Source: Malacoraja senta
Lineage: Eukaryota
Reading direction: 5' to 3'
Assembly (NCBI GenBank): GCA_038087875.1
Contig: CM075988.1
Coordinates: forward strand, 26,848,001 to 26,912,000
DNA length: 64,000 nucleotides
Positions 28,301 to 64,000 of the stretch are shown here, one piece after another. A program made the position numbers and the translations under genes. Below the pieces are notes generated by a model. That model did no database searches. It was not told where the DNA came from and was given only the letters and a program-made list of their open reading frames with translations. Numbering within the stretch: position 1 is the first letter of the stretch; each line of letters opens with the position of its first letter.

Positions 28301-31300
28301 TTGATGGGAATTAATGTCGGGTTTGCTGCTGTTGCCTCTGCTTCGTACACAAGCTGCGTACACAGAGTGCTGGCGCCAGTAAAATTATACCTGAACATGA
28401 AGGACAATTTTTCTAGGAAGTGGATAATTAGGAAATGAGAAAATGATGACTTCATAAGTGATGGGAGCAGAATTGGGCCATTCGGCCCATCAAGCCTACT
28501 CTGCCATTCAATCATGGCTGATCTATCTCTCCCTCCTGACCCCATTCTCCTGCCTTCTCCCATAACCCCTGACACCGTACTAATCAAGAACGTACCTATC
28601 TCCGCCTTAAAAATATCCATTGACGGCCTCCACAGCCTTCTTGGGCTTGTTGAAACTTTCAACCACCTTATGCGATCCCCATTGCATGTACGTTTATATT
28701 TGTTTCAGGCAGATGGGAAGACAACCACACGATATGCAGCAAAGACCTTGGCAATCTGTAGCAGTAGAAGTGAAGAAGCTCGAGAGCAGATTGTCAGATG
28801 TGATAAAAGTATGTGATAATTAGCTTCTGAATTAAGCAATCATTTAGAATTAACTTGTCATTGATCATGAACACCAGTGCAGGCGTCACTCAGCAGAGTG
28901 CCAATGCTGCGCAATCTAATTCAATTCATTAATAATTACACAGTGTAGTTGGAAAAATTTCCATCAATGATAGCAAATAATTCTTGATTATTTAATAAAT
29001 AAATATATATATATATAGTGCCATTATTAATGAGTTATTGCCTAATTATGATTTAAAAATAAACTCTGAAGAAATTAGAAATAAAAACATTATGAAGGAG
29101 GAAGAAAAGTACCACCTAAACGATAAAGATAGCTTGCATGTAGCATAATCTTATTTGTTGTGGTTGGAACTGGTAAAATTTACAGATACTCATTCCTTGT
29201 GCCCTTGGCAATGATGGCTTTGCAGGCACGGCCATTATGGCTGCATTCCATGTAGCAGCGATGCTGCATCAATTTTGAATCGGTTATGATGAAATAATGG
29301 CCAATGTTGTCCCAGCAGAATAGTGTGTGACTGGTAGGTTAATATTTTAGTTGTGTTTCAATTATTTTCTCATGGTGCTGACGCACCTGATATGCATTTG
29401 ATGTGTTTTATGCATTTTGTAGCACAGCATGTACTCGAAAGTAATAACGACATATATTTAAGCTAACTCCCAACATTTTGTAACAAAAGCTACATCCACA
29501 ATTGTTGTCAAAGGCTCAGGATGGTGCTGAGAAACTTCTTGATGTCATATTTCTCACCTTCACTTTGATCGATGTTCATGTCCCCCTGTTGGTGTGCGCT
29601 TCAAAAAGTGCTGCTCAGTAGTTTCCTGTGTATTATGATGTGTAATCAGCAGTTTTCCTTATCTTGCCTTGACTTTCGAAATGATTTTTAATCTACTCAC
29701 CTGTGCTATTATAAATCTGTTAATTTAGGACTGGTGCTGATGGAAAAAAATCTTTGTTTTATCTGACTAATTTGTTGGTAAATTTTGTAAATTCACGTGC
29801 TATTTTTTTTGTTTTTGTGCATTATTCCCTGGCCAGAGTTCAGTGTTCTCAGGAAGCTGCTATCTCTAGATGATGAACAAGTGGTGGGCAATGCTGCTCT
29901 TTGCCTTTCACACTGTGTTGAGATCCCAGGAGCTGCTGCATCTCTGCTCAAAACTGACATTGTCAGAATATTGTTGAAGCATGCTGGTGGTGATGCAAAG
30001 GAAAACTCCCTTCAACAGAATGCAGCAATTGCTCTGGGTAAACTCTGCTTGGCAGAACCCAGGTAAGACCTCATTTTAATTCCCAACAGAACAAGATTAT
30101 TGGATTCTGCAGCTTATTGCAGCCTGTAGAATATATGGAATTGATAGGTTGTGACTTGAGAAAATTCTCAGGTACAGGACCTACCTGAACCTTGTATAAT
30201 ATCTGAGATTTTAAACTGCTGCTTTACCTGCAAATATTAATATCAACTATCCTTTAACCAGAAGGTGAAATTCTGCAGCTGCTTCACTTTGTTTTAATAA
30301 ATGCAGGAATATGTCATTGAGCCAAAATAGTCTCTGCAGATGTTTATTGCCAACAGGTATTTCCTCCCATCTTGATCTATATAATAGTGACATCTTTAGT
30401 GCTAGCCCTCAGAGCATTGACTCATTATCACCATGGCCCTCCAGCCTGAACACTTACAGGTATATGCTGTGTACTATAACTGTTCTCTGCTGTTCTGGTA
30501 ACTTGGTGAGAATCCGTGCTCTCAGAGCAGTAAATTGGATCAGTAAGGAGAGGCTTATGTGAGGGATGGCCTTGGGCGGGCTGGAGCAAGAGATGCAGCT
30601 ACTAGGGCTGAGACGTGGAGCTCGGAGCTGCAGCCTGACTAACAGAGATAGTGTAGGCCAGGGCAGGGACTGGCAGCATCAGCTCCGTGTGTTCTACATT
30701 GCCCATTGCATGATGTTTGTAGCTGCTGTCGCTCCTGTTCTTTGTTTGGTCACATGGCTTCCCCCAGTCCAGAGCTTTAATTACGGCGGTGGCTGAATGG
30801 TGATCGCTGGCCACCATTTCAAATGTTGGATGACGTTCCTTGGTTAGGAAGAGCTGTGAAGCCAAAGAAAGAGGGGTTGAGGTAACTGCTTCTATCACCC
30901 CTTTGATTCCATTACAATTAATCTACAATTTGAGAGGGAGAAGGAGAAATCAGGTGTCAGTATTACAGTTGAGCAAAGGGGACTATGGAGCCATGAGGGA
31001 GGAGCTGGCCAAAGTTGACTGGAAAGAGACCCTAGCAGGGATGACAGTGGAACAGCAATGGCAGGTGTTTCTGCGAATAATACAGATGGTGCAGGATCAG
31101 TTCATTCCAAAGAGGAAGAAAGATTCTTAGGGGAGTAAGAGGTGACCGTGGCTGACAAGGGAAGTCAAGGACAGTATAAAAATAAAAGAGAAGAAGTATA
31201 ACAGCAAAGATGAGTGGGAAGCCAGAGGATTGGGAAACTTTTAAAGAGCAACAGAAGATAATTAAAAAGGCATTACGGGGAGAAATGATGAGGTGCAAAG

Positions 31301-31933
31301 GTGAGCTAGCCAAGAATATAAAGGAGGATAGTAAAAGCTTATTTTGGTATGTGAAGAGGAAAAAAATTGTTAAGACAAACATGGGTCCCTTGATGACAGA
31401 AACAGGTGAATGTATTATGGGGAACAAGGAAATGGCAGACGGGTTGAATATGTACTTTGGTTCTGTATTCACTAAGGAAGACACAAACAATCTCCCAGAT
31501 GGGGGTACTGATTGTGGATGATCAGCCATGATCACAGTGAATGGTGGTGCTGCCTTGAAGGGCCGAATGGCCTACTACTGCACCTATTGTCTATTGTGCT
31601 GCTGTTCCTGGGGTTGAATCCTGAGTTTTCAATGAGGTGTCCATGTATATGAAGAGAGTACAGATGTTTATGTGTCTGCATTGCTCGAATCATGCATCAT
31701 CCCAAAGCCTAGAGGTTCATCTGACCTCTCATAGAGTGTAAAAGTCCTGAAGTCTGATTTTGTTTAAAGTTGTTAACTTCTCATGAGAATTAACACTCGT
31801 TAAAAATGGCCAAGTGAGCTCTCTTTCTGAATGTGTTTGTAACATTTCTCGTACTGTACTCAGGCATAAGACTGAACTCCGTGAACTCCATGGATTGGAA
31901 ATTCTGTCGTCCTGCATGAAGTACATCAAGTGA
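1106..31933 (+). CDS. TTC12: TTC12 (TPR + armadillo-like repeat protein), multi-exon gene span, 5'-partial; 20 coding exons totalling 2105 nt including stop
   Basis: The hand-spliced AG/GT exons keep one open frame. The peptides match recalled vertebrate TTC12 motifs ([63 protein letters not shown]). Most exon sizes equal the recalled human ones. Confidence 0.96.
1430..2220 (-). mobile_element. Degenerate CR1-clade LINE 3' fragment
   Basis: Similar to the cleaner CR1 copy at 5878-6826 (e.g. tcatctgcaaact = reverse-complement KFADD); boundaries approximate. Confidence 0.7.
2694..3022 (-). mobile_element. Penelope-like element 3' end: GIY-YIG C-terminus, pyrimidine tract, hammerhead-motif terminal repeat
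   Basis: Minus-strand peptide [28 protein letters not shown] followed by CTGAAGA..GACCCGAAACGTT and the common repeat tail. Confidence 0.8.
3413..3443 (+). CDS. TTC12: TTC12 31-nt micro-exon ([10 protein letters not shown])
   Basis: ACTAAC branch point, tctctcacag acceptor, AAG|GTAAGA donor; its 3n+1 length is needed to join the phase-0 and phase-1 neighbours. Confidence 0.8.
3955..4032 (+). CDS. TTC12: TTC12 exon ([25 protein letters not shown]), 78 nt
   Basis: ttag/GTGAGC; EKDAKER motif. Confidence 0.95.
5362..5670 (-). mobile_element. tRNA-derived V-SINE (HE1-like)
   Basis: Minus strand reads box A-like TGGCGCAGCGTTAG, box B GGTTCAATCC, V-domain (ggtttcctcccacactccaaagac), CR1-like tail and (AAACT)n end. 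Confidence 0.8.
5878..6826 (-). mobile_element. CR1-clade LINE, 5'-truncated; C-terminal RT region with an open frame
   Basis: ORF 5968..6747 ([40 protein letters not shown]), KFADD upstream, (TTTCTATG)n tail. Confidence 0.93.
6978..7099 (+). CDS. TTC12: TTC12 exon, TPR1 ([15 protein letters not shown]...LYTNRAQ), 122 nt
   Basis: gcag/GTATGT; TPR consensus. Confidence 0.96.
8030..8770 (-). mobile_element. Degenerate CR1 3' fragment(s)
   Basis: Similarity to the 5878-6826 copy; boundaries approximate. Confidence 0.6.
8980..9039 (+). CDS. TTC12: TTC12 exon, TPR2 ([20 protein letters not shown]), 60 nt
   Basis: ccag/GTGAGG; in frame. Confidence 0.96.
10032..10103 (+). CDS. TTC12: TTC12 exon, TPR3 ([24 protein letters not shown]), 72 nt
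   Basis: tcag/GTAAGA; in frame. Confidence 0.96.
10826..12015 (+). mobile_element. L2-clade LINE, 5'-truncated
   Basis: [41 protein letters not shown] and [14 protein letters not shown] motifs; frameshift near 11800; (GACTT)n tail. Confidence 0.92.
12394..12454 (+). CDS. TTC12: TTC12 exon ([20 protein letters not shown]), 61 nt
   Basis: ccag/GTATGA; in frame. Confidence 0.93.
12943..15626 (-). mobile_element. Rex1/Babar-clade LINE, 5'-truncated, uninterrupted APE-RT-C-terminal frame, 8-bp TSD
   Basis: ORF 13120..15642 ([38 protein letters not shown]); (CTGAAT)n tail; TGAGACTT at 12935-12942 and 15627-15634. Confidence 0.95.
15830..16162 (+). mobile_element. LINE 3' tail, probably Rex1-related
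   Basis: RF.DSFFP-like end (agattcagtgacagtttcttccca), ...gacaataaactaaactcaaactc tail; a similar tail lies at about 59710-59856. Confidence 0.55.
16248..16436 (+). CDS. TTC12: TTC12 exon ([16 protein letters not shown]...[17 protein letters not shown]), 189 nt
   Basis: ttag/GTAAGT; in frame. Confidence 0.94.
16749..16839 (-). mobile_element. Penelope-like terminal repeat with hammerhead motif
   Basis: Reverse complement reads CTGAAGAAGGGTCTCGACCCGAAATGTC followed by the shared tail. Confidence 0.75.
18049..18118 (+). CDS. TTC12: TTC12 exon ([22 protein letters not shown]), 70 nt
   Basis: gcag/GTAAGC; conserved motif. Confidence 0.96.
18748..18836 (+). CDS. TTC12: TTC12 exon ([29 protein letters not shown]), 89 nt
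   Basis: acag/GTAATT; in frame. Confidence 0.94.
19205..19965. mobile_element. Degenerate Penelope-like element: divergent GIY-YIG fragments (minus ~19205-19345, plus ~19345-19965)
   Basis: Minus: [28 protein letters not shown]. Plus: [38 protein letters not shown], then a pyrimidine tract and a decayed terminal repeat. Confidence 0.7.
20326..20494 (+). CDS. TTC12: TTC12 exon (EENQRILIT...[13 protein letters not shown]), 169 nt
   Basis: gtag/GTAATC; in frame. Confidence 0.95.
21828..21920 (+). CDS. TTC12: TTC12 exon ([30 protein letters not shown]), 93 nt
   Basis: atag/GTAATC; in frame. Confidence 0.92.
22045..22332 (-). mobile_element. V-SINE (HE1-like) copy
   Basis: Same family as 5362-5670; box B GGTTCGATCC. 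Confidence 0.78.
22588..22771 (+). mobile_element. CR1 3' tail fragment
   Basis: Near-identical to the reverse complement of 5880-6065. Confidence 0.85.
22854..23139 (+). mobile_element. Penelope-like terminal repeat with a nested antisense CR1 tail; 15-bp flanking duplication
   Basis: ACAAAATGGTTAAAC at 22839-22853 and 23140-23154; CR1 tail at about 22963-23080. Confidence 0.7.
23416..23479 (+). CDS. TTC12: TTC12 exon ([21 protein letters not shown]), 64 nt
   Basis: ttag/GTAAGG; restores phase 2 to phase 0. Confidence 0.88.
23676..23810 (+). CDS. TTC12: TTC12 exon ([21 protein letters not shown]...[11 protein letters not shown]), 135 nt
   Basis: gcag/GTAAGT; in frame. Confidence 0.94.
25210..25750 (+). 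mobile_element. Old degenerate Rex1 fragment
   Basis: [26 protein letters not shown] and LPSGRRY motifs with stops and frameshifts. Confidence 0.8.
25766..25951. repeat. Fold-back (inverted) pair of Penelope-like terminal repeats
   Basis: Perfect 31-bp inverted repeat at 25851-25881 / 25883-25913, with extended imperfect arms. Confidence 0.85.
26218..26322 (+). CDS. TTC12: TTC12 exon ([35 protein letters not shown]), 105 nt
   Basis: acag/GTAGGA; YTLLGLM.NL motif. Confidence 0.93.
27531..27599 (+). CDS. TTC12: TTC12 exon ([23 protein letters not shown]), 69 nt
   Basis: taag/GTAAGT; DGGILT motif. Confidence 0.94.
27714..27815 (+). CDS. TTC12: TTC12 exon ([34 protein letters not shown]), 102 nt
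   Basis: acag/GTAAGA; follows a 114-nt intron. Confidence 0.95.
28452..28640 (-). mobile_element. CR1 3' tail fragment
   Basis: Matches the CR1 tail family (ggccattcggcccatc...ccgccttaaaaatatccattgac). Confidence 0.75.
28709..28808 (+). CDS. TTC12: TTC12 exon ([33 protein letters not shown]), 100 nt
   Basis: tcag/GTATGT; in frame. Confidence 0.95.
29837..30062 (+). CDS. TTC12: TTC12 exon ([23 protein letters not shown]...LGKLCLAEP), 226 nt
   Basis: ccag/GTAAGA; strongly conserved. Confidence 0.96.
30902..31597 (+). mobile_element. CR1 ORF2 inter-domain fragment joined directly to a CR1 3' tail (internally deleted)
   Basis: [29 protein letters not shown] and [10 protein letters not shown] motifs, then gatcagccatgatc..ggcctactactgcacctattgtctattg. 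Confidence 0.8.
31864..31933 (+). CDS. TTC12: TTC12 last coding exon ([22 protein letters not shown])
   Basis: tcag acceptor; TGA at 31931-31933. Confidence 0.95.
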
Positions 31934-32104: not shown

Positions 32105-32196
32105 TGAAGAAGTGTTTCGGCCCGAAACGTTGCCTATTTCCTTCGCTCCATAGATGCTGCTGCACCCGCTGAGTTTCTCCAGCATTTTTGTGTACC
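32105..32196 (+). mobile_element. About 92-bp hammerhead-motif unit in the TTC12 3'UTR, 13-bp TSD
   Basis: TAACCAATAAGTC at 32092-32104 and 32197-32209. Confidence 0.8.
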
Positions 32197-37149: not shown

Positions 37150-37267
37150 GTGTAGGAAGGAACTGCAGATGCTGGCTTACAGCGAAGATGGACACAAACC
37201 CAGCGGGACAGGCAGCATTTCTGGAGGGAAGGAATGGGTGACGTTTCGGGTCGAGACCCTTCTTCAG
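37150..37267 (-). mobile_element. Hammerhead-motif Penelope-like unit, 11-bp TSD
   Basis: Reverse complement has the consensus core CTGAAGAAGGGTCTCGACCCGAAACGTC; AGAAATTCAGT at 37139-37149 and 37266-37276. Confidence 0.8.
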
Positions 37268-40329: not shown

Positions 40330-40820
40330 CAATGTTTTGAGAGGCTAGTTATGGAACGCAGTAAATCCAGTCTACCCAGCAGCCTTGTTCCATAGCAGAG
40401 ATGGTCTGAAGAAGGGTTTCGGCCCGAAACGTTGCCTATTTCCTTCGCTCCATAGATGCTGCTGCACCCGCTGAGTTTCTCCAGCATTTTTGTGTACCTT
40501 GTTCCATAGCAGTTTGCCTACCGCCACAACAGGTCCATGGATGAAGCCATTGCTCTTGCCCTACACTCATCCCTGGAACACCTGGATAAGAGAGACACCT
40601 ACAGTGCATCAGACTCCTATTCATAGACTACAGCTCTGCCTTTAATACCATTATACCATCCAAGCTGATCTCCAAACTCGCGGGACTTGGTGTCAGTACT
40701 CATCCGGATCCTCAAACTCCTGACCAACAGACCCTGAACAGTGAGGGTAAGCAAAGGCAGCCCCTTTCTTTACTCCTTGTACACCCACGACTGTGTAGTC
40801 ATGTACAAATCTAATTCAAT
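40330..40820 (+). mobile_element. Degenerate Rex1 RT fragment, interrupted by a hammerhead-motif unit (40399-40496, 16-bp TSD)
   Basis: QFAYRHNRS..AIALALH and [18 protein letters not shown] motifs; CCTTGTTCCATAGCAG at 40383-40398 and 40497-40512. Confidence 0.8.
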
Positions 40821-42420: not shown

Positions 42421-43674
42421 TACAAAGGAGATGTTAAGATAGTCAAAGAGAGAGAAGGGTAAATCTGCAACACAGATTAAACCATAGAAACTGAAGTCCC
42501 ACTCAGCTCAATGCTCTTACACAGGCACTTTGATGAAACTAGATTCAAATTAACAAAATGAAAACTAGAACTCTTCTTCATAATTTCTTTTCACAAGGCA
42601 TGGAATGGAGTGGAATTTGGAACAGCCCAATCTCCAACCTTCCTTCGAAGATACACACAAAAAGCTAGAGTAACTCAACGGGTCAGACAACATCCCTGGA
42701 GAAAAGGAATAGGTAACGTTTTGGGTTGAAACTTCACCTATTCCTTCTCTCCAGAGATGCTGTCTGACCTGCTGAGTTACTCCAGCTTTTTGTGTTTATC
42801 TTTGATTTAAACCAGCATCTGCAGTTCCAACCTTCCTTCTCTCTATGTATTCCTAAAAAATATTTCAGCTTTCTAAATTTATGCCTATCGTTATTTTTGA
42901 ATCGTTCCACTGAATGAACTTCTTTATGAATCATTGTACCCGTAGTGATTGTGGCAAATGCCATCTATCCCTACCTTTACACAGCCATTGATGTGGATGG
43001 CAACATGGCCCTCTTCTAAAGCTCTCCATTGACATTCAGTTGGGAATAACCGTCTTTGCCTGCGTGTATTTTTTATCTATCTCTTCCTAGTCGCTTCTCC
43101 TTCCCTGACTACAGCATTACTCCCCTATCACTGGCTTTTTCCCCCTTCAACATTGTCATCTAAATGTAGACTATTATTTCCCATGCATATACTGATGACA
43201 ACCAGCTCAATTTAACCAAGTATTTTTCTCTCTCAATGTTGTCTGCTTGTATGCTTCACATTCAGAACTGGATAGTCAAAGGTTTCTCTGACTACAATCT
43301 CTCTCCCTGATATCTGAAAATAAACTAGATGATTTGAGTTCTATATTTGATACCTGAGGTGAATTTAAGATTGTATATCCATAACATTATCTGAACTCCC
43401 CTGGTTCCAAAATAAAGATGAATGCTGAGAATACTAAGCAGGCTGGGCAGCATCAGTGGAGAGCGGTCCAGAGATGATTTCGCAGATGAGCATCAATTGC
43501 GAAAATGGTGAAAGCATGTTAACTAAAACTGAGCTGTCAGGAAGAGGTATAAATGGAGGGAATACTGAGGAAAACCAAACAATATTTCTCTCCATTAATG
43601 CTACCTGGCCCATTGAGTATTTCCAGCATTTTCTGTGTTGGTTTTTAATCTTTCAACATCTGCAGTTACTTTGG

Positions 43675-43815
43675 TACCACCGCCCCTCACTCTGGCAATG
43701 GAGGAGGCCCAGGACAGAAAAACCAGCATGGGAGTTAAAATGGTTGACAACTAGGACTGAGCACAAGTGTTCAGCGAAAAAGTCGCCAAGTCTACACTTG
43801 GTCTCACTGATGTTC
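43675..43815 (-). mobile_element. Penelope-like GIY-YIG fragment
   Basis: Minus strand reads ISETKCRLGDFFAEHLCSV..NHFNSHAGFSVLGLLHCQSE. Confidence 0.7.
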
Positions 43816-43854
43816 TTGACTGATGTCCTATTAGCCCTGTTCTCATATACTGGA

Positions 43855-43957
43855 GAATATCTGAAGAAGGGTCTCGACCCGAAACGTCACCCGTTTGTTC
43901 CTTCTCTCCAGAAATGCTGCCTGTCCCGTTGAGTTTACTCCAACACTTTGTGTCTAA
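43855..43957 (+). mobile_element. Hammerhead-motif unit, 13-bp TSD
   Basis: Consensus core at 43861-43888; CTCATATACTGGA at 43842-43854 and 43958-43970. Confidence 0.8.
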
Positions 43958-46292
43958 CTCATATACTGGATGCTCACTCATCCCAAAAACTCTCAAATTC
44001 CTTCTATAAACTTCTTACCTCTCTGATAAAGCATTTGATTATCTGCCTTGAAATTGTTTGTGCATTGTTGTTCGATTTTGTGTGATAACATAACATGCCT
44101 GAGTAGCAGCTTGCAATGTTAAAAATGGAAATTTAGGGTGTGGTGGACAAGAGCAATGCAGTTGAAAAGCCTGCTACTTTGTAACACTGCAATATTGGGG
44201 ATTCATTCCAACTACTAGATGAATCAAGGTGTTCCCAACTATTCAGTTAGTAGCAACAGGCTGCCTGTGGTCTATCCAAATCCAGCAGATGGATCGAGAT
44301 GCCAGTCAATCTCCACGGTATGCTGAATCAGTTGATCTAGCTTTGGCAGTGACTGTTGGAAGGTTGACGTTAGCCTCAGTCCTTTCAATCCAGGGATATT
44401 TATTGACTGAGACAGGGCTCTGTTTTAACTTCATTGCACTATATTGATATGTGGATGCCAAGTGATCATGTGATCAGGCATTCTCTTCACATGTTGTCAG
44501 ACTGCTGGTACTTTCCAGGATCAACAGAAATAAACTTAGAGAACACACCCCAAAAAAAAAAAAACAGCCTCTTGAGCATTTAAAAACGAATCAGACGGGT
44601 GAAATTGGGACCCATTTCCGTGAAGAATAAAGAATGGTTGGCAAATTTTCAAACAATAATTTGTAAAATCTGTGAGTTTCTATGATTTATTGAATGTGCA
44701 CTTGTATGCTCACTTGCACTTCATTTCAACTGTAAAACAATATTTTTTCCGACACTATATTTAATATTTACTTTCCAGCTGCCCTTGTCCACCTGTTATA
44801 GAAGCAGATTTTAAACTAGATATTTTATCATTCACAGAGTTTCAGAATAAATTGTGCAATCCTCCTACAATGTTCCAAAAATGTCATTAATCTCACTGAA
44901 TGTATTCCAAAGACTACTGGAATACACTGCATTTTTCCTCCACAACCTTTGAAATGAATGATAAATGCATAATAGAAGTTCATTTGGTACTAAATAAAAT
45001 GTTCAAGCTCATAGATAGCGCTGGTTCTTATCTCCCCAACAGATGAGCTGGACTAATCAGCCTTACATGCTCCCTTTATTTGACTAACAAGCTCTGTTTG
45101 AATAGTTTGGATATTACTGATGGATGGAAAGGATTGTTTTAAAGATTGGAGAAAAACTAGGCACTGTCTGGCCAGTTTTGCTCATTTTGCCCACATCACC
45201 GTTAGAAAGAATAAACCAGGCATTTGTTTATTGTATCTTGCTATACTTGAAGGTGAGTGTTACGTTTACCGACAAATGGTGTCAGGATTTTAAATTGTAC
45301 GTAAAACTAAAATGCAGGACATTTTTCCATCCTTGTAAAACACAAGTGAAGTCAGTGGGTTTTTATGACAATTGGTAGTTTTGAAGCAATTTTGATTTCT
45401 GTTTCAGTTAATTAAAACTCTAGTTGATTAAAAGGCGAGGTGGTGTGTAAAAACAAGGGTCTTTTCCTAAATGGTGTACAGGTGAGCAGCATGATTTGAA
45501 TATATTCATTTTGTGAAGAAGGTCAAAGTGCTTCATTACCACAGGCCAACAGGTGAATCTTTCCACTTGCTTATACTAGTAATGTCCATATAATCTGGGT
45601 GGAATCAGAAGAACCAGTGCAAAGAATCAGGGAATTTAAAACAAAATTAAATCACTAATAAAACCGTGATTATCCACAGTCTTTTATTGGCTCACAGTTC
45701 AATTAATCAATTTGCATCCCAAACTTGTTTCCATGTTTCCATTTCAAAATGACCAGATCTCGCCCAGAGCTGATCTACAACAATAATCCTGCTGCTTGTC
45801 TCTCTGGAACAGAAATTAAATAACATTGAACCAAAAGAGTATGTGTTTATTTCATTTGCTGCATCTGCATCAAGTGCCCATATTGTACTTGATACCGTAC
45901 TTGATCCAAGTGCCCAGAATGTACCTGATTCTGTAGGTGAGTAATTTAAACTGGAAGGCTTTAGACTTGAACAATTTCAGGTCAGAAATGCCAGGGAGGA
46001 ATGTTGGGTTCATGTAGCAATATGACTGGACCATTGATGCTCACCAGGTCAACTGAGGAAGTTTAATTAACCAAAACTGAAATAGTAGTTGCTACAAAAC
46101 CACTGGATTGTCATCAAAATCCACTCACCGGTTGGGTTCATCAAGGAAGGAAATCTGTCACCCTTACCTGGTTTCATAGATGCCTCCAGCCCTACCAATA
46201 CCATAGACTCTTAACTTTCTCTTCAGTTCAGGGAAAATTAAGGAAGGTCAATAAATGCTGGTCACAAGTCATGATTTGTTAAGCACTGGGAA

Positions 46293-46510
46293 GTGTAGGA
46301 AGGAACTGCAGATGCTGATTTAAATCGAAGGTAGATACAAAATGCTGGAGTAACTCAGCGGCACAGGCAGCATCTCTGGAGAGAAGGAATGGGTGACGTT
46401 TCGGGTCGATCAGTCTGAAGAAGGGTCTCGACCCGAAACGTCACCCATTCCTTCTCTCCAGAGATGCTGCTTGTCCCGCTGAGTTACTGCAGCATTTTGT
46501 GTCTACCTTC
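46293..46510. repeat. Fold-back pair of Penelope-like terminal repeats (83-bp arms, 18-nt spacer)
   Basis: 46327-46409 is the reverse complement of 46428-46510 with about 4 mismatches; consensus hammerhead core at 46415-46442. Confidence 0.85.
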
Positions 46511-47500
46511 ATATAACAGTGCCCTGGAGTGGAGCAACCTGCTTCCTTTTAACCAGCCAAGGCAACCTGAGGCAAGGCGCAGTCCCCAAACCTAGTGGTG
46601 GCAGAGTTTGTTGATGCTTGACAAACTAATGCTTCCACCAGAAACACTCTGTAGATATCTGGAGTTCAGGTAGCTGAGAACTGTTCTGCATTCATTATGT
46701 TCTTGGAGTATTCAACATCATGTTCCATCTTACAATTACGTCCTTGTACGTCCTCACTGCCCTGAAGGGGTTACGTATCATTGAACCCTTGTGGTTGTAA
46801 AATTCAGATGCTTGACTTGCAGATTGTACAGTATGTTCAGCTCATGAAGTCAGATGAAGGCCCTATTACCATGCATTCCACGGTTTCACGTTACACCATG
46901 TAGCCTTGGGCCAGCAGAATTTCATCCTGCATCTTTATAATTATTATTTTCAAGAGATACTACCATAGGACATAATTTTATATCCCAAACCTTCCTGTTT
47001 TTTTTGTTACCTCCAGCATTGCTCTTGTATTGAGTCAGAAAGCTGTGGGTATGAGTCTCTGAATATTTCAGAAATAATGAAGATTGTACAGTAGTTAATT
47101 TAGTGTCAGCCTTTAACAGTGAGCTGTCTTCATTGTTACGATGGGTCATACTACTCTGCATTGCTGCTTGGTTTACAGGGTGATGTGTATTCAAAGCCAC
47201 TGTAACTGCATTAGTAGTGTGACATTATAACATTAGGATACCCAGCATGGTCTGAAGAAGGATCCTGACCTGAAACATGGCCTGTCCATTCCCTACACAG
47301 ATACCCGACTCGCTGAGTTCCTGCAGCACTTTATGTTTTGCTCCAGATTGCTTGCATTAGCATAGTAATAGTTGGTGACAGCACTCCTGTTTTGAAAGTG
47401 TGCAGTTTCGATTTGCACTCGACTCTCCGCCCCTGAGTTTGAGCAGGAAGTACAGTGCCAGTGGATTCTCCTTTCCCCAAAGCTGTCTTCTCCTTGTGCC

Positions 47501-47703
47501 ATGGCAGGTGAACCAAAGGGGTTTCTCCGTCAGCAGTCAGCCATCACCCCAGGTGTGTTTACCGAGGCTGACTTTGTGTCTTTCAACAAGATCGCTTCAG
47601 GAAAGTTTGCAAATGTCTTCAAAATAAAACACAAAGTGTGGAGGGTGAACTTGGCCCTAAAGTGCTGCCATTTGTTACGTGAAGAATCCTCATCATTTGA
47701 AAG
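47501..47703 (+). CDS. ANKK1: ANKK1 exon 1 (MAGEPKG...IASGKFANVFKIKHKVWRVNLALKCC...)
   Basis: gccATGG Kozak context; G-loop and ALK (VAIK-equivalent) lysine; AAG|GTGGGT donor. Confidence 0.92.
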
Positions 47704-50700
47704 GTGGGTGTTAGACATTATAGTTACAGTTAGAGATGCATTCACTTTTAAACTAAATACAAATTGATAATTAAAACTGCAGTAAGCAATTTATATAGGA
47801 ACTAAACGTGGATGATATTATTTATATCCAGCAGTCAATTACTGTGTGATGGAAATTGCTGCAGGCTAGCTTTTGCTTTTTCCTATAATTAGCAAGATTT
47901 ATCATTTGGATGGCACTCCAAACTAAACTAAATGTTATTTTAAATTTAGTGTCCTCATCAATAGATGAAAGGATGTGGGTGAAGTGGGTGCATCCGCACT
48001 GAGGATTGTAGCTGTGCCCATCTGAACCATTTAGGCTTGTCACGAATCATGAATTTATAGGCCAGTGGCATCTCCCTGTATGAGACTGTAGATGTTGGAG
48101 TCATAGTCTCAGGATAAGGGGCGGGTATTTTAGACGGGAGCAAGGGGAATTTTCTGCAATTAGAGGGCTGTGAATCTTTGGAATTCTCTACTCTGTTAGG
48201 CTGTGGATGCTCATATACTGTGTACAATTATATCTGGGCAATAGATTCTTGGGTGCAAGAACCACAAAGTGATATCGGGCAAAGTAGTAAAAATGGAAGT
48301 GACATCAATGTTCAGCTGATCTTATTGAAAAGTGGGAAAGAATGGGAATTAAAAGGATCGGTGATATGTATGAAATGGGAAATCTATTATCATTCCAACA
48401 ATTATAATTAAAATTTAAACTGAAAAATAACCAATATTTTAAATATCTTCAGATTTGTGATTTCATGAAGAAATACATACAAGGATATCAAAAAATAACT
48501 TTTGATTTACTGGAAGAAACAATGAATATTAAGGCTGACTCACAGAAATTAATATCATATTTATATAATAGTATTTTAAATGTAGACCTACCATCGACAG
48601 AGGCACTTAGAGAAGAGTGGGAATGGGAATTAATGATAAAAATTACAACGGTTACATGGGAAAAGTATTTGATATATATACACAAATGTTCGATTAATGC
48701 AAGACATAATTTAATTCAATTTAAAATTTTACATAGATTATATTATTCAAAAACTAGATTGAATAAATTTTACCCAAATACTTCCCCCATTTGTGATAAA
48801 TGTCTATCCCAAAACGCAACCATAACACACTCTTTCGTTTCCTGCATAAAACTTTATAAATTTTGGAGTGATATTTTTGAAATATTTACAAAATTATTCA
48901 AGATAAGAATGGAACCTAATACTGAAATGATTATATTTGGAGTAATGGAAGATGGGAATAAATTGAACTCATCTCAAAATTTATTTTTTAATTATGGTTT
49001 AATAATAGCAAAAAAACTAATACTTAAATTCTGGAAAAATACACCAATACCAACGCTTAAAATGTGATTTCAAGCAGGTTGGACACTGCACATCTTGAGG
49101 AAATGCTAATAGATAAATCAGACCAATTCTTAACGAGTTGGTCTCCATTTGTCGTCTTTTTGGAATCATATGGTGCAACACAATTGTAGAAGCTAACTGT
49201 TCCAGGACTGGGTGAGGGATGGTCAAGATTATAAATAATGAGCTCCTTACTTTTATTTTTTTATTTTCAACTCTCTTTTTTCTATTTTCTTTTCTTCAAT
49301 TTTCTTCTTTCACTCTTTTTTTCCTTTTTCACACACTATATATTTCACGTTTTTCTATCTTTTATTAAAATAAAAAATAAAAAAATAACAAAAATAAACA
49401 AATAAATAAAATAATAATGAAAAGTGGAGAATATAAGGTGTCAGAGTTTACTCCTGAGTCTATTTCTTATGTTCTTAAGTATATATATATATATAGTGGC
49501 TTGCAAACGTTTTCATACCCCTTGAACTTTTCCACATTTTGTCACGTTACAACCACAAACGTAAATGTATTTTATTGGGATTTTATGTGATAGACCAACA
49601 CAAAGTGGTGCATAATTGTGAAGTGGAAGGAAAATGATACATGGTTTTCAAATTTTGTTACAAATAAAAAACTGAAAAGTGTGGTGTGCAAAAGTATTCA
49701 GCCCCCCTGAGTCAATACTTTGTAGAACCACCTTTCGCTGCAATTACAGCTGCAAGTCTTTTGGGGGTATGTCTCTACCAGCTTTGCACATCTAGAGACT
49801 GAAATTTTTGCCCATTCTTCTTTGCAAAATAACTCAAGCTCAGTCAGATTGGATGGAGAGCATCTGTGAACAGCAATTTTCAAGTCTTGCCAGAGTTTCT
49901 CAATTGGATTTAGGTCTAGATTCACGCCATTCTGACACATGAATATGCTTTGATCTAAACCATTCCATTGTAGCTCTGGCTGTATGTTTAGGGTCGTTGT
50001 CCTGCTGGAAGGTGAACCTCCGCCCCAGTCTCAAGTCTTTTGCAGACTCCAAGATTGCCCTGTATTTGGCTCCATCCATCTTCCCATCAACTCTGACCAG
50101 CTTCCCTGTCCCTGCTGAAGAAAAGCATCCCCATAGCATGATGCTGCCACCACCATGTTTCACAGTGGGGATGGTGTGTTCAGGGTGATGTGCAGTGTTA
50201 GGTTTCCGCCACACATAGCGTTTTGCATTTAGGCCAAAAACTTCAATTTTGGTCTCATCTGACCAGAGCACCTTCCTCCACATGTTTGCTGTGTCCCCCA
50301 CATGGCTTGTGGCAAACTGCAAACGGGACTTCTTATGGCTTTTTTTCAACAATGGCTTTCTTCTTGCCACTCTTCCATAAAGGCCCGATTTGTGGAGTGC
50401 ACGACTAATAGTTGTCCTGTGGACAGATTCTCCCACCTGTGCTGTGGATCTCTGCAGCTCCTCCAGAGTTACCATGGGCCACTTGGCTGCTTCTCTGATC
50501 AATGCTCTCCTTGCCCGGCCTGTCAGTTTAGGTGGACGGCCATGTCTTGGTAGGTTTGCAGTTGTGCCATACTCTTTCCATTTTCGGATGATGGATTGAA
50601 CAGTGCTCCGTGAGATGTTCAAAGCTTGGGATATTTGTTTATAACCTAACCCTGCTTTAAACTTCTCCACAACTTTATCCCTGACCTGTCTGGTGTGTTC

Positions 50701-51088
50701 CTTGGGCTTCATGATGCTGTTTGTTCACTAATGTTCTCTAACAAACCTCTGAGGCCTTCACAGAACAGCTGTATTTATACTGAGATTAGATTACACACAA
50801 GTGGACTCTATTTACTAATTAGGTGACTTCTGAAGGCAATTGGTTGCACTGGATTTTATTTAGGGGTATCAGAGTAAAGGGGGCTGAATACTTTTGCACG
50901 CGACAATTTTCAGTTTTTTATTTGTAAAAAAATGTGAAAACCATGTATCATTTTCCTTCCACTTCACAATTATGCGCCACTTTGTGTTGGTCTATCACAT
51001 AAAATCCCAATAAAATACATTTACGTTTGTGGTTGTAACGTGACAAAATGTGGAAAAGTTCAAGGGGTATGAATACTTTTGCAAGCCA

Positions 51089-51146
<58 letters not shown>

Positions 51147-54100
51147 AATGTAATATATCTATACATATATATCTGTAGAGAATGTGCAGATAAAAATTGT
51201 GTAAGTACTGTAAAAAGATAGATAAGTCTAAGGATAGTAGGAGATAAAAACTAAAACTGCAAAAAAATGGTAGAGGGCGGTAGTTTGGGACATTACTTTT
51301 CTTCTTTAACATTACAGGGACATGAAATATCTGATGGAGGTGGCAGGGAAGACGCTGAGAGTAAAGTTCAAGCACATTTTGCCAATATATGGGATTTGTA
51401 CGCGGCCGGCGGGAATTGTAATGGAATACTTGGAAAACGGATCTCTGGATAAATTGCTCCTCAAAGATACATTACCTTGGCCAATGAAATTCCAGATTAT
51501 TCATGAGACGTCTTTGGGAATGAACTTCTTACACAGTATGAAGCCACCACTACTTCACTTGGAGTTGAAAGCTAGAAACATACTCCTGGATGAAAACCTC
51601 CACGTCAAGGTTGCTGTGTTGATTGTCTGACCGGAACTCTCATACCTGACAGGTTTAAGGCAGCTAGTGTGAGATCAATTAGGTTCCAGCCTTGGTTCAG
51701 TGATAGCTCTCATCTCTGCATAGGCTATTTGCGGTTTCAACTTTCATTTCAACGTACAATGCAGTCTGACACCCCAGTGAAGTGTTGAGGGAGTGCACCA
51801 TCATCAAGATTTTAAAACTAAATCCCATTTTCCTTTGCTAATGTCCAAAAGATAGATTGCATTACAGATTAAACCAGTATAATTATATTAATTCAATTTA
51901 TCATAAGAGATAAGCTACAGAATATCAATGCAGCATTATGCTAAATCAATCAGTTAACAGCACAATCTTGGGCAAGTGGTGTGAGTTCATTAGTTGTCCC
52001 AGCTGGTGAACCTGTTCATTGTCACTCTGGTGGGGGTTCATTCGTTGTCACATGACTTCTCTATCCCACTCCACAGCAGGTCAGGCTACATCTGTGGAAA
52101 GAGAAATAGAGTGCAAGTTTCATGTCACTGGCTCTTCATTTGAGCGGACAAAGAGAGAGTATATGCAGTCAAATGCAGAGGACATAGGGGGAGGATTATT
52201 GGGAAGGACCAAGACCGAGTGCAAGGTAGTTGAGATAAATTGAGCAAAATGGTGATAATGTGAGGTGAAAGTGTGTGACAGTCAAACAAGTAGATATGGT
52301 TGGGAAGATGTACAAATGAGATTAGACACGATCATTAGCCCAAACTTTTGAAGTTTGGTGCAATGTGCCCAGTAAAAAGACGAGAAGATAGATTTCTATT
52401 GTGTAGTACTTTTCAAAGCAGAAGATTGATTGAAAAGTATTTGGTGAAAATAAGGCAGATGCTGTGAAATTCATTGTGTGGTGTGCTATGGAGGCCATTT
52501 AGTGTGTGATGTGCCATGAAGGCCATTTTGCAACAGTTATCACACGTATGCATCAAAGTGAAGTGGAAAAAAACAAGTCTCAGCAGGAAGGAGTCTTGTC
52601 CAAAGTAAGTTAGAGAGTAATTCCTCGTGGCACCATGATCACAGTGTCTGCTGCTGTAGGCAGCTGAGGAATCTCCTGCAACCTTGAGTCTCCAACACTG
52701 CAGGTTAGACAGGCAATCGGTGAGTTGTCTGTGCGGTGTTGGGCACCATTCCAGTGTTTGTCCTCCACATTGACCTCCAGCACAATGTCAAAGATGTGGG
52801 AGCCCACTCCTGCTTCCTGCCTGCCAATGCCACAGAAGGCAAGGCTGGCATTTGGCCATATGACTTGAGACAGTGCCATCTGCTGAGGATTGCTAGCATT
52901 ACTCAATAAGGTGCAAGGGCACTCTTGCTACTTCACCTTCCTGCATATAATTTGAAATGCCACGCAGTTACCATGTGTAAATGTATTGAAGGTCTGAGAA
53001 TGCCACAGCTTATGTACACAATGTTTTGTGTGTCAGGCATGTCTCTCTGCCTCTGCCCTGGAATAAACTTACCATGTCCATTATATGTTCCCATTTCTAA
53101 GGTCCAGGTGGTGGCCTTTAACGACTTGCATTGAACGTCATTGGACCATTACTGGAGTCTGACAACCAAATGGGGTGGGATAGAGAAGTAATGTGGCAGA
53201 ATCTCTCTCTAAATGGCATTCAGCAAAATCGTTTGCCCAGTGGAGTGTGGACCGGCACTTCTGCCTTTGTGCTGCCCTTAATTGTTAAACCAATACAGGC
53301 ACATAACACCATAATGATTTTATTCATCAAAGGGACACTTGCTTGAAAGAAAATGTTTGTGGTCACTAACAAGCATATTTGTATTTTATATAGATAGCAG
53401 ATTTCGGATTATCAAAATGGGAAGATAGCATGAGTAATATGGAACAAATTGAAAGGTCTGCTATGAGAGGAACCATCATCTATATGCCACCAGAATTGTC
53501 AAATAAACCTTCTGGAGTCAAGCATGATGTTTACAGGTCAGATTTCATTGAGTTACAGGATCTGGTTAAGTCTTCAAGTTTAATTTTTAGTAGCAGTCTT
53601 ACCGGTATTATTGGAATTCAGCATAGTCAGAATTGTTGCGATTAGGTGTGAAGTTAAAGGAGCCTCTTTGTTAAAGGTTGCTGCATTCATTACTTGCTAT
53701 GATTTATACATAACAATGATAACTGAATTCAAAAGAGCCTCATTGACTATAAATTGCTTCTGTAAACACTGGGATGGCAAGAGGTGCCACATGGATGCTC
53801 TGACGAAACATCAACAACCTGAACTGTTGCCTAGTTTCCCGTTCATGCTGGGTGGTGCCTGTCCTGAGAGGTTCCACATTTTGTTTTTGTTTCAGATTTC
53901 CAGCATTCACATTCATTTTGTAATTCTCCTTTACTGTATGGGTGTGCAATGTTTGCCTTTGTTCTTTCCATTTTCTTCCAAATGTGCAGTTTGTGGCTGT
54001 TTGCTTTATGCTGCTTCATTGGGCCCTTGCTCTTTGTTTGATCACCCCTCCATGAACACAGCACTGTCTCTGAATAGAAACCTAATCTTAGGAAATCATC

Positions 54101-57100
54101 AGCATGCTGCTATGCTGAAAGTTACGTTCTCATGCACTACCTTCTCTGAGATCTGTCAACAGCTTGTAGCTGATGTGATGAGGTGAATGCCAAATGGTCC
54201 CTAAGTTCTGAAAACAAAGTTACTTCCTGAAGCAATAGTTTTTCACATCACACTAAAATAAACTGCTGGTAGAACTCAGTAGGCCAGGCAGCATCTGCTG
54301 AGGGAAATGATAGCTTAAGACAATTTGGGACCTGGGCCTTCTTCAGAAGAAGGGTCGCAACCCAATACTGTCTCCAAAGATGCTGCCTGGCCTACTGAGT
54401 TCTTGCAACAGTTTGTTTTTTGCTCTAGATTCCAGCATCTGCAGTACCACATGTCTCTAGTTATACCTCTTGGATTGTTTACTGAATCAAGCCATGTCTT
54501 TGAGATGTTTTATATTGCTTTATATCTAAATGTTATTATTACATTGAAAATGATTTGTGCTGGAGATGATTGAAGCATTTGACCTCATTGATTACATTTG
54601 AATGAAAGTAGATAATAGGAAATCTGCAATGTTCTCAGCATTTTGACTAGTAACACCTTTACCATTAGTAACTGCGGGACAGATTTCATATTCAATCTTG
54701 AATAAATTGTTTATTTCATTTTATAACAACCCTTAAACCTTCTATATAGTTCCTGAACTGCATTCCACTTACTTATCCACCAAGAGGAAAGAAATATAGT
54801 TATTCCAACATCTGTGACGTTTTGATGTGACAGAACATTTCTGGGACTAAAGTGATGTGACATAAATTCAATGGAAATTCATATATTTTTTTATTACTCT
54901 ATTCCACAAGGATAACAAAATCTATAGCTCCCATATGTCAAGGTGTCTCAATGTACCTTTCACTGAAGTACCACCTTTGAGGCACAGCCATGTAGGTATT
55001 GTGTCAGACACTTTGTAGCCATGAAGATCAAACAAACAGCCATATGATCAACCATTTAAGTTTTGGTTGTGTTAATTGAATGTTAAATGCTGACTAGGAC
55101 ATAAGGAGGGATTCCTCTACTCTGTAGGTTAATCTTTGAGAAGATTCAATGAAAGGGAACTGCAGATGCTGGTTTATACCAAAGATAGACAAAAAGTGCT
55201 GGATTACCTCAGCAGGTCAGGCAGCATCTTTGGAGAAAATGGATAGGTGACGTTGCGGGTCGGGGCCTTTCAGACTGAAGAAAGGTCCCGACCTGAAACT
55301 TCACTGATCCATTTTCTCCAGAGATGCTGCCTGATCCGCTGAGTTAATCCAGCACTCTGGAAGAAGGCACCTTCAACGTTGCAGAATCCCTAAAATACTG
55401 CAGTGGAGTTCCTGGCCGTTTATACACAAGCCTATGGATTTCCCTGTCTTCCAACTCAGGGTCGAGAGAGCTCCTCACTAACCACAGAGAATATACCAAG
55501 GAGTACCTGAATAAATCAGCACCTGAGGGAAGGAAGCATATGAAGGAGAAAGGAAAAAAAGAAAAGATTAATAAAGTTGGATGAAATCAGATTGGGCAAT
55601 TGGAAACACCCAACCTCATGCTGAAGGACAGAGCTAGTGGGAATAAATACCAATCTTCTCGTGATTCTTTGCTACACGTTCCATGTTTGTTAAACTCCAT
55701 GCTGGGAGCAATAACACTGCCACTACACTCATTTACATAACATTATTATTTGGGTGAAACAAATCTTAAAAACCTACAAGCAAACGGATTTTGTCACTAA
55801 TATTCATAGAAGCTATTCATATTTCAGTGAATTAGAGCAGCTGTATCATTTACCAGTCAGAATTTATGCACTTATTATGCAAATTAATATTAAAGCTTTC
55901 AGTGCCCTCTAACCATTCAACGTGACACAAAGATATGGAACTTGCATCAATACTTGTTTACCCAACATCTCTCTGCTCAGCCACCTTCATTACCCACTAG
56001 TCTGACAACAGTTTTATTTTAAAATCTTAAATCTTTTATACAATTTTTTTTTCCAAAATGGTTCTTCCACAGTCCCACTCTTCCCTACATCTGTAATCTT
56101 TAGCCGCTGAGATCATTGCTTCTCTCCCGTTCCGTTGTGAATCGATTCATCATTGGTTGTTATTCCTTCAGCCCCCATAGGTATAAAGGTTTAGAATTCC
56201 CTTCTTGCACTGCATACTCCACCCTCTCTCCTACTCAATATTCCCCACAAAGCCTACTGTACTTCTAAGATATGATAGTGACATTTGAGAGACTTTTGGA
56301 TAGGCAAATGGAAATGCAGGAATGGAGGGATATGGATTATGTACAGGCAGGTAAGATAAGGTCTTAGCATCATGTTCGGCACAGACTTTGTGGTCTGATG
56401 GGCCTGCTCTAGTGTACTATGTTCTATAACCAAGATTTTGAATCTCTTTTAAGATCTCATGTGGTTCAATGTGAACTTTTGTTTCAGAATACTCTTGTAA
56501 AGTATACTGGGAGATTTCCGTATAATACAATTAACAGTTGATGCTTTCGTTGAATTGTACTAGTGTCATTTCTTTGTCCGGTTAAAGGAGACTAGCATTT
56601 GATTTGCGCTGGACATGAAGAAACTTACAGTGAATGTTTTTTCCAGCTTCTCCATTGTGACGTGGGAGGTCATGACTCAGCAGAAGCCCTATGCTGGTAA
56701 GACCATCACTAGCTCTCCCTGCAAGAACATCCCTACAGTCATCATGGCAACAGCTAATCCCTGTATCAATGGGATTTATGATTTACTTTAAGAAGGATCA
56801 TTTACATTAAGAAGGATGCATTATTATTATTACAACATTTAATTATGAGCACTAACATTAATTTTGTTTGAGTTTTGTGGTCGATGTAGATAAATGTGTT
56901 GAATACAATTAAGTTATCTGCTTGATTTTCAACTTCATTACAGAGGTACTTGGTGATCCCTGTAGAAATCATAGTGTTGCTCCTCAGAAAATAATTCAGT
57001 TGTTTACCTGATTCATCATGGCATTAAATCATTTTACTTCCTCTGAGACTGCACTGGTGAACATGTTTATTTGATCTGTTTAGGAAAAGTAGTTTAGCAG

Positions 57101-63100: not shown

Positions 63101-63353
63101 ATTCCGCTGCCTTGTCAAACTGCTTGACCACCAAGCCAATGTGAATGCTGTCAGTCACACCGGATGGACATCGCTGCATCTGGCAGCCATGAGTGGGGGT
63201 GTGAACATCGTAAGGATGTTGATCATGCAGGGAGCTGACCTGAAGGCCCGAGACCAGTATTTCAACACTGCCCTGCAGTTGGCTACCAAGCACCGGAACC
63301 ACAACGTGGCCAGCTTACTCTCAGCTGAAGAAACAGCAAAGCATGATTCATGA
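47501..63353 (+). CDS. ANKK1: ANKK1 (ankyrin repeat and kinase domain containing 1; RIPK family), complete 8-exon CDS, 2331 nt / 776 aa
   Basis: RIPK-type kinase exons plus a large terminal ankyrin exon. ANKK1-like motifs DEDKWAPLHFASQNGDD and DFGLSKW. Lies directly downstream of TTC12, as in other vertebrates, and all exon phases are consistent. Confidence 0.93.
48336..49417 (+). mobile_element. L1-clade LINE 3' fragment with 10-bp TSD, inserted in an older CR1 tail
   Basis: ORF 48465..49067 (QFKILHRLYYS..CDKC..THSF..C, ORF2 C-terminal Cys-rich region), T-rich 3'UTR, A-rich tail; TGAAAAGTGG at 48326-48335 and 49418-49427. Confidence 0.88.
49494..51091 (-). mobile_element. Tc1/mariner DNA transposon, Passport-like, full length (about 1.6 kb), disrupted DD34E transposase
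   Basis: About 210-bp IR/DR-type TIRs (CAGTGGCTTGCAAA..; inner repeat GCAAAAGTATTCA); TA flanks. Transposase runs from 50712 to about 49710 with GRPPK, WSDETK, QQDNDPKH and LNPIE; it has frameshifts near 49925 and 49765 and a 5-codon deletion. Confidence 0.95.
51092..51142. repeat. (TA)n microsatellite flanking the Tc1 insertion (also 49480-49493)
   Basis: Direct reading of the sequence. Confidence 0.95.
51318..51609 (+). CDS. ANKK1: ANKK1 exon 2 (DMKYLMEVAGK...[30 protein letters not shown])
   Basis: acag acceptor; kinase subdomains III-VIb; weak donor AAG|GTTGCT at the conserved HVK position. Confidence 0.93.
53394..53536 (+). CDS. ANKK1: ANKK1 exon 3 (IADFGLSKWEDS...RGTIIYMPPELSNKPSGVKHDVY)
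   Basis: ACTAAC branch point, atag/GTCAGA; DFG, PPE and DVYS motifs. Confidence 0.94.
55153..55358. repeat. Fold-back pair of Penelope-like terminal repeats in ANKK1 intron 3
   Basis: Inverted arms around the core CTGAAGAAAGGTCCCGACCTGAAAC at 55275-55299. Confidence 0.8.
56647..56696 (+). CDS. ANKK1: ANKK1 exon 4 (FSIVTWEVMTQQKPYA), 50 nt
   Basis: ccag/GTAAGA; subdomain IX. Confidence 0.94.
57436..57730 (-). mobile_element. V-SINE (HE1-like) copy
   Basis: Same family as 5362-5670, with (AAACT)n tail. Confidence 0.8.
58089..58244 (+). CDS. ANKK1: ANKK1 exon 5 (TDVLAVFVKVVAGERP...LMQRCWNQEPKRRPAFS), 156 nt, GC donor
   Basis: tcag acceptor; subdomains X-XI; the only nearby in-frame donor is CCG|GCAAGC. 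Confidence 0.88.
58720..58835 (+). CDS. ANKK1: ANKK1 exon 6 (IVVETEMLCSLLQFPD...SSLH), 116 nt
   Basis: ctag acceptor; resembles recalled human DITIETDILLSLLQ; donor CAC|GTACGC (3' boundary less certain). Confidence 0.78.
60425..60636 (+). mobile_element. CR1 3' tail fragment
   Basis: ttgccacagaaggctgtggaggcc...cagccatgattgaatggcggag...cttatgaccttatgac. Confidence 0.8.
60722..60797 (+). CDS. ANKK1: ANKK1 exon 7 (NGTIISEIASYELQTLSLLPGTETD), 76-nt linker
   Basis: Strong pyrimidine tract, ctag/GTGAGT; phase 0 to phase 1 as required. Confidence 0.75.
62059..63353 (+). CDS. ANKK1: ANKK1 exon 8, about 12 ankyrin repeats, stop TGA
   Basis: gcag acceptor in frame with ORF 62091..63353; repeated TPLHLA motifs at 33-aa spacing. 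Confidence 0.96.
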
Positions 63354-63664
63354 CTTACCTTGTCATGGGCTGTTCACAAACTCAAAACACTTGATGTTGG
63401 GGATTTAAAATCTGCTAAGGGATAGACCTTCCATATCTGAATCTCTGCTTGAATTGAGACCAGTGTTGAATGTAAACTTCCTCAGAATGACAGGGTGCCC
63501 AGAGGAAGAACAATGGAGGACCCGGCATTGGGGGGGGGGGGGGGGGGGGGGGGTTGGTGTTGGGGGCAATACAGGATCACATTTAAAATTCTTTAAAAAA
63601 TATATAAAATCTAACATTTTCCATTTTATCACAGTGTTTTACTAAATTATTTTATATGCTTGAT

Positions 63665-63878: not shown

Positions 63879-64000
63879 TTATTCCATCTTCTGTGTGCTT
63901 AGTTGATGCAGTAATTAGCCCCAAAACATTGAGCAATGTGAAATTTGTCATAGAGTGATACAGCGTGGATACAGGCCTTTCAGCCCATGCTCCCACCAGC

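Follow-up and report, generated by a model that had tools for sequence, protein, structure and literature searches.

The insertion at positions 43855-43957 carries a short motif resembling the catalytic core of a hammerhead ribozyme, which raises the questions of what kind of repeat it represents, how the copies of this repeat originated, and whether the motif is likely to cut RNA. All positions refer to the window, that is, the whole 64,000-nt stretch of Malacoraja senta DNA analysed in this study. The repeat is a very abundant stub, 90-130 bases long, of a Penelope-like element (PLE), with the core letters of a minimal hammerhead. We consider it highly probable that this stub consists of the pLTR and tail of a PLE, likely of Neptune type, and opens with the core letters of a minimal type I hammerhead, that it was inserted by what is likely target-primed reverse transcription of uncut RNA, and that its motif would be a poor cutter at best unless a partner copy and protein assist. 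The features at the focal site are as follows.

43855-43957 (+): whole focal insertion, bounded by a 13-nt direct repeat
43842-43854 (+): left copy of the focal target-site duplication (TSD); right copy at 43958-43970
43861-43888 (+): focal hammerhead motif; core letters 11/11, stem II pairs 4/4
43686-43811 (-): older GIY-YIG endonuclease fragment from the same kind of element (tblastn E 1e-10 with protein P0006)

Within the focal insertion, 5 nt of filler and U2.1 precede the hammerhead motif, which is followed by the downstream part and a short, tail-less end. The motif is composed of CUGAAGA (43861-43867), an extra A (43868), GGGU (43869-72), the loop CUCG, ACCC (43877-80), GAAA (43881-84), ACGU (43884-87) and C17 (43888), and the predicted cut falls between 43888 and 43889. 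Since this copy lacks G2.2, its stem I is reduced to 1 bp. The neighbouring endonuclease fragment, overlooked by the initial sequence-only reading, lies 30-40 nt away from the insertion and passes into an older tail copy (43585-43672, +) at the latter's 3' end.

A relaxed pattern (CTGANGAN{10,25}GAAA) matched the 64-kb window 15 times compared to 3.85 expected matches, and 0 of 100 shuffles reached 15. All ten copies that the sequence-only reading had listed as intact (six on the plus and four on the minus strand) are among these matches, as is the decayed copy at 47252; the other decayed copies that it named, at 4943, 22877 and 58336, are also present. A family HMM built from the best copies recovered 41 fragments that total 3243 nt (approximately 5% of the window), with no match when the window was reversed, in agreement with the earlier description of a high-copy repeat. 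That description had also placed the repeat at the 3' end of a Penelope-like retroelement; it is indeed a terminal part of such an element, but most copies are solo stubs or inverted pairs rather than the 3' ends of long truncated copies. Representative copies are listed here.

32105-32196 (+): solo stub, UUCG-loop subfamily; 13-nt TSD; possibly missing in two other species
37150-37267 (-): solo stub with long tail; 11-nt TSD
40399-40496 (+): solo stub of the UUCG-loop subfamily, flanked by a 16-nt TSD; its hammerhead fold, with a 3-bp stem I, is the best
16743-16841 (-): solo stub; core intact
22876-22963 (+): solo stub with C3 changed; 7-nt direct repeat, within the chance range
25755-25951 (unstranded): head-to-head pair; centre U2.1 (25882); tail on the minus arm only
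46292-46510 (unstranded): head-to-head pair; arms 95% complementary; best family-A copy on the plus arm (C3 46415)
55150-55361 (unstranded): head-to-head pair joined at position 2.1 (55274)
42647-42825 (unstranded): head-to-head pair; joint inside the hammerhead head; 14-nt TSD
63659-63880 (unstranded): older head-to-head pair; joint just before the cores

Exact direct repeats of 11-16 nt occur at 6 of 20 insertions compared to 4 of 400 random sites. Measured from C3, copies end either near +90 (short) or near +125 (with a tail of 30-40 nt). Wherever copies are closely spaced, all pairs are inverted, and the 15 TRF rows of the window include no same-strand (head-to-tail) tandem units. Among 11 head-to-head pairs, nine carry the tail on exactly one arm, two on neither and none on both (p ~0.03), a count that includes one borderline long call, at 899. 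The TSDs, head-to-head pairs, one-sided tail and endonuclease are published Penelope hallmarks. Summed contig depth ranged from 1e5 to 8e6 in repeat bins versus ~35-75 in unique bins (X1), although these sums include other repeats and do not represent copy number.

The window also contains kinase exons (PF07714) and an ankyrin-repeat exon at about 47400-63353 (+), belonging to what we take to be a RIPK4/ANKK1-like gene; its introns hold several head-to-head pairs, which would form long hairpins in the pre-mRNA. Other mobile elements in the window include a LINE, not a Penelope element, with an 853-codon open frame and an RT domain (PF00078) at 13120-15681 (-), a Tc1/Sleeping Beauty-like transposase fragment of 274 open codons at 49900-50724 (-), and LINE-like ORF fragments at 5968-6861 (-), 10683-11837 (+), 31186-31521 (+) and 48408-49067 (+), with the RT domain confirmed for the fragment at 10683.

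Because copies should not be chosen by their core, conservation was assessed on 36 copies gathered with a profile of the downstream part only, of which 24 with non-core head letters were kept and 12 headless copies were dropped. All 11 core letters are present in 11 of the 36 copies, ten of them with C or U at H17. In line with the earlier expectation that the core would stand out from the rest of the repeat, non-CpG core columns are better conserved than base-matched downstream columns (0.947 versus 0.845; 24 copies, p 0.001), a figure that leans in favour of the core because the alignment was made to an intact-core copy and 12 of 36 copies were left out. Two downstream blocks, picked after the fact, are as conserved as the core (0.951). 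CpG-type decay is seen at G12, C11.1 and the central CG of ACGU. The extra A between A9 and 10.1, previously interpreted as a natural variant, occurs in 22/22 copies, and 10.1-11.1 is G-C in 14/22 and pairable in 19/22. The minimal type I layout with a loopless palindromic stem III (ACGU), as originally described, is also borne out: for the palindrome, A-U is seen in 20/23 copies, C-G in 7/23 and U-G in 8/23, with losses that fit CpG decay. Most copies have no ATG in the core (N7 is A in 15/21). The Rfam search that had been proposed as a check gave weak microRNA-like matches and no hammerhead family, whether across the window (E<=1) or in two 160-200 nt stretches (E<=10).

The stems require some revision of the original description. 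Stem II had been drawn as GGGTC/GACCC; with its 2-nt loop this cannot fold, and the stem is 4 bp closed by a 4-nt loop, which is CUCG, UUCG or CCCG depending on the subfamily. Across 23 copies, 85.9% of the 92 cells of this stem are paired compared to 4-65% in slid controls. Two-sided changes, however, occur in 2 of 92 cells versus 1.8 by shuffling, and 140 of 500 shuffles reach the observed score, in a test with little power on 23 dead copies of few masters. The stem II covariation suggested earlier is thus no better than in shuffles and not usable as evidence, and the A-U pair at 55283/55294 that had been called compensatory is what CpG decay plus one G>A change would produce. Stem I comprises two pairs beside the core, U2.1-A/G1.1 and G2.2-C1.2, followed by an A.C mismatch in 11 of 18 copies; the 4-5 bp helix I of PLE minimal hammerheads is absent in this family. 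At 55275-55310 (+), ACUGAU after the cut site is the perfect partner of AUCAGU upstream in the copy with C3 at 2822, a match that may reflect an older, full 6-bp stem I.

Under a nearest-neighbour model that ignores tertiary contacts and that was applied without an active-hammerhead reference, the double-hammerhead fold lies 17-30 kcal/mol above the best co-fold in 8/8 copies, including the best family-A copy (-1.7 versus -25.3 kcal/mol), the focal copy (+6.9 versus -22.9) and the copy at 40406 (-6.1 versus -26.4). The predicted folds of individual copies are no more stable than those of shuffles (z -0.7 to +0.5), and head-to-head pairs are predicted to fold as single long hairpins (-112 to -164 kcal/mol). 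Together with the short stem I and the lack of a tandem partner, these models suggest that the motif would likely cut poorly, if at all, unless helped by a partner copy and protein; ribozyme activity of the focal copy is doubtful. A conserved hairpin in the downstream part was considered and rejected, with only a weak 4-bp consensus (-3.5 kcal/mol).

The link between the repeat and an endonuclease is provided by two copies.

2696-3021 (-): 5'-truncated copy; 15-nt TSD around the endonuclease end, spacer, motif and tail
19209-19970 (+): older copy; inverted endonuclease piece at 19346-19209 (-) and broken endonuclease end at 19351-19525 (+)

In the 5'-truncated copy, the endonuclease C-terminus (3017-2919) is followed by a stop (2918-2916), an 88-nt pyrimidine spacer, TCAGT, the motif, with C3 at 2822 and a damaged stem II, and the long tail. 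The older copy is more eroded, with a hammerhead head near 19889 that retains 17 of 28 letters and an endonuclease (within 19345-19965) that is broken into two weak matches (E 0.007); the piece at 19209-19346 (-) is a further GIY-YIG endonuclease remnant from an element of this kind. The repeat had been reported to lie directly downstream of a GIY-YIG C-terminus, and the association stands in both copies, but a spacer intervenes, leaving 93 nt between the C-terminus and C3 at 2822 and ~365 nt of spacer at 19.3-20.0 kb.

Over 32 aa, the endonuclease piece at 2919-3017 (-) shares 75% identity with the C-terminal end of the Leucoraja protein P0006 (E 4e-12 in the window), whose matching region starts with the GIY-YIG motif, and its closest proteins are from Rhinoraja (81% over 32 aa) and Leucoraja. 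It is also 50-57% identical to a whale-shark protein with RT, a C-x4-C-x2-C linker and GIY-YIG, and in the shark proteins P0014-P0016 this endonuclease is joined to RT via the same linker. Ninety-six proteins of at least 822 aa match the whale-shark protein at E<=1e-20. A C-x2-5-C-x2-C linker, which is the mark of Neptune and Nematis elements (PMC8557442), occurs under a strict pattern in P0014 and 55 of 99 relatives, and the pieces in the window stop short of it. The element is likely of Neptune type, a clade assignment drawn from the shark homologues. With 99 query proteins, no Penelope RT fragment was found in the window; the proposed connection to a PLE ORF with RT and GIY-YIG holds for the GIY-YIG C-terminus upstream of the motif and, within the window, does not extend to an RT piece. 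Neither the shark RT-EN protein nor DNA patterns of the repeat had a match in viral, metagenome or prokaryote collections.

One frame is open across the motif and downstream part at 46412-46510 (+), and the open frame through motif and tail had no N-terminus match among the related proteins compared. A 48-aa peptide had no match in a word-index search and no Pfam family; HMMER gave 12 matches, of which P0002 and P0004 look like chance. In public gene models, the zebra-shark RT-EN model P0015 reads through its own spacer into a hammerhead-like stretch, and two host gene models, P0003 and P0012, have a piece of Penelope endonuclease at their end.

The 5' boundary of the stubs is sharp. Both endonuclease-linked copies keep all five letters of the native upstream TCAGT, and 10 of 10 solo copies examined keep 1-3 nt of it. 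In five copies with a direct repeat (one of only 7 nt), at most 7 nt separate the repeat from C3. Head-to-head joints fall within ~6 nt of C3 in 6 of 8 pairs examined, with 25882 and 55274 exactly at 2.1 and 46410, 54345, 58582 and 63750 also in this range; the joints at 42725 and 61484 are inside the head. Public contigs from three species have loose ends with unrelated flanks that are strongest at 46412/46413 in 3 of 4 runs (at least 547-1058 contigs per row), and a neighbouring contig class continues into a shared pyrimidine-rich upstream in 4 of 4 runs (at least 593-1255 contigs per row). No loose ends at the cut site were found among the best 24 of 14,092 rows, and 61698-61765 (+) is the sole fragment of 41 that starts at about the predicted cleavage site. 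Since stub 5' ends lie before the core and not at the cut site, the template was probably uncut RNA, and it is likely that the stubs were copied from such RNA as for the green anole Poseidon element PAc (Frangieh et al. 2024, PMC11167929), for which two internal RT starts have been demonstrated in vitro.

A possible mechanism can be outlined from these boundaries. The element's protein may begin reverse transcription within its own RNA, using either of two sites that lie 30-40 nt from each other; the two copy ends (+90 and +125) correspond to the pair of internal RT starts demonstrated for the anole element. The first base of the RNA would be the A in TCAGT, an initiator-like sequence immediately ahead of the core. 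If the start site is then used in its 5'-proximal copy, reverse transcription would run off the RNA 5' end after ~100 nt and yield a solo stub; use of the 3' copy would give the longer endonuclease-bearing copies. Inserted copies would then be dead, with decay hitting CpG positions first. TCAGT fits the polymerase II initiator consensus; it also forms a YAG/U acceptor and half of a palindrome. An RNA start at this A is the candidate origin of the solo-stub boundary that we favour, with not quite an even chance. Our more general proposal is made tentatively: the solo minimal hammerheads of Penelope elements may be run-off products that span, in full, the first 90-130 nt of an uncut RNA that starts three bases before the core, primed at an internal start site near its own 5' end, rather than random truncations.

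There are several potential alternatives to an RNA start at TCAGT. The palindrome TCAG-T-CTGA is centred on U2.1, and a cDNA end could snap back there and prime the second strand, with opening at the loop giving solo stubs and opening farther off giving head-to-head pairs. Self-priming has been proposed for Penelope palindromes (PMC3846280), and both the exact centring of the pairs at 25882 and 55274 and the 6 of 8 joints at or near C3 are consistent with fold-back; however, 0 of 10 solo copies have more than three native upstream letters, the joints at 42725 and 61484 are inside the head, and a stem of 3-4 bp is weak, making fold-back an unlikely origin overall. The boundary could also be a spliceosomal acceptor, in which case a short 5' exon would complete stem I and the stubs would copy spliced RNA. 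Both endonuclease-linked copies and the contig consensus have YAG/U behind a pyrimidine tract, the 5' strand of helix I is where an intron of D. virilis Penelope ends (PMC4209133), and AUGG before U2.1, common to two solo copies, extends stem I. Yet the other eight solo copies share no upstream exon, and the upstream letters at 32104 and 37267 belong to the target duplication, so that splicing appears distinctly improbable, as does any cause other than an RNA start, fold-back or splicing.

A different question is whether the hammerhead, acting as a dimer, efficiently cuts and thereby processes the RNA of a recently mobile Penelope family. The core is kept across three subfamilies with different loops (CUCG, UUCG, CCCG), changes from U-A to U.G preserve pairs in stems I and II, ACGU is self-complementary, and recent mobility is suggested by two UUCG copies that are 99% alike and by contigs of two other species that hint at an empty site at 32104. 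Nevertheless, stem I is 2 bp, double-hammerhead folds lie far above the best folds (in a model that ignores tertiary contacts), same-strand tandems are absent and head-to-head pairs would give one long hairpin, and the copies begin elsewhere than at the cut site. According to published work, minimal hammerheads are also weak or protein-dependent (PMC4209133, PMC11167929), with 1 of 9 Xenopus dimers cut (bioRxiv 10.64898/2026.07.22.740005), and efficient self-cleavage is, in our assessment, improbable. It is harder still to credit that an ordinary SINE or MITE-like inverted repeat resembles a hammerhead by chance. Such a resemblance would agree with the lack of an Rfam match in the window, the lack of covariation and the hairpin-like form of many copies, but eleven core letters plus the extra A, G10.1-C11.1 and the palindrome stand in the exact published layout, and the link to an endonuclease, the TSDs of variable length (11-16 nt) and the tail on one side only speak against it as well.

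The age of the copies bears on how recently the family moved. The two UUCG copies are 99% alike, family-A copies 82-95% and others 62-85%. Contigs of a second species (organism B, with unique flanks ~4% different) enter the insertions at 37267, 42825, 43861 and 46510 by 22-50 nt, and these insertions therefore appear older than the split. Contigs of organisms B and C that match the right flank of the 32104 copy do not end within the repeat but continue for 94 and ~121 unaligned letters, which hints at an empty site in both. From these comparisons only the UUCG-loop subfamily looks young; the earlier suggestion of recent mobility remains plausible for this subfamily, but the focal insertion and three others appear to be shared with the second species.

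The pairing of hammerheads with Penelope elements is already described, and the skate family is an ordinary further case. Minimal hammerheads were reported in the pLTRs of metazoan PLEs (Cervera and de la Pena 2014, PMC4209133), including fish Xena, Poseidon and Neptune and also coelacanth and Xenopus, with weak cleavage. The skate copies share with them the type I layout, the missing loop III, the palindromic 15.1-16.1, the extra nucleotide after A9 and G10.1-C11.1, as well as solo copies (thousands there) and opposite-strand pairs. They differ in helix II (4 bp here versus 7-8 bp in Schistosoma) and in helix I (2 bp versus a typical 4-5 bp), although D. virilis also has 2 bp. No shark or skate is named among the hosts in the main-text portion and supplement file 2 of that paper. 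As in PAc, the hammerhead sits where pLTR and ORF meet, two 3' ends that differ by the length of a tail follow ~90-130 nt behind it, targets are AT-rich, and uncut RNA serves (here, likely) as template; however, PAc belongs to the Penelope/Poseidon clade and its full ORF was tested in vitro, whereas the relatives of the skate family have the Neptune/Nematis linker and most skate copies are without a core ATG.

Compared to Neptune-clade EN+ PLEs (Craig et al. 2021, PMC8557442; Arkhipova et al. 2013, PMC3846280), the family has the same C-terminal GIY-YIG, an inverted 5'-truncated copy, a 30-40 bp tail at one end, TSDs and solo pLTRs, but RT and linker were not found in the window, and copies with an ORF are far fewer than stubs. 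Non-LTR retrozymes (Li et al. 2026, bioRxiv 10.64898/2026.07.22.740005), reported as hammerhead repeats alongside PLEs in one chondrichthyan, are likewise non-coding, hammerhead-bearing, pLTR-related and often monomers. Retrozymes are, however, defined by head-to-tail tandem units; the skate copies lack these in the window, have TSDs, and start at the core instead of the cut site, and the absence of tandem units led us to reject this reading. The literature compared also takes in PMC6765202, PMC2377424 and PMC8969392. A literature search, with Repbase/Dfam and most subscription journals outside its scope, returned no paper on this skate family or on core-starting stubs; the family may well be catalogued already in a repeat database.

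The family adds a cartilaginous-fish example to the hammerhead-Penelope pairing, which is of modest value, and it accounts for ~5% of the window and many of its apparent hairpins, seen as weak microRNA-like Rfam matches. If the run-off proposal is true, the element would turn out SINE-like stubs of itself in large numbers. The presence of no more than three bases ahead of the core would then explain why stem I is limited to 2 bp, and the end of the template would not be set by the hammerhead. The sharp 5' boundary would carry more weight than the added example; it bears on what the Penelope hammerhead does and where its solo copies originate.
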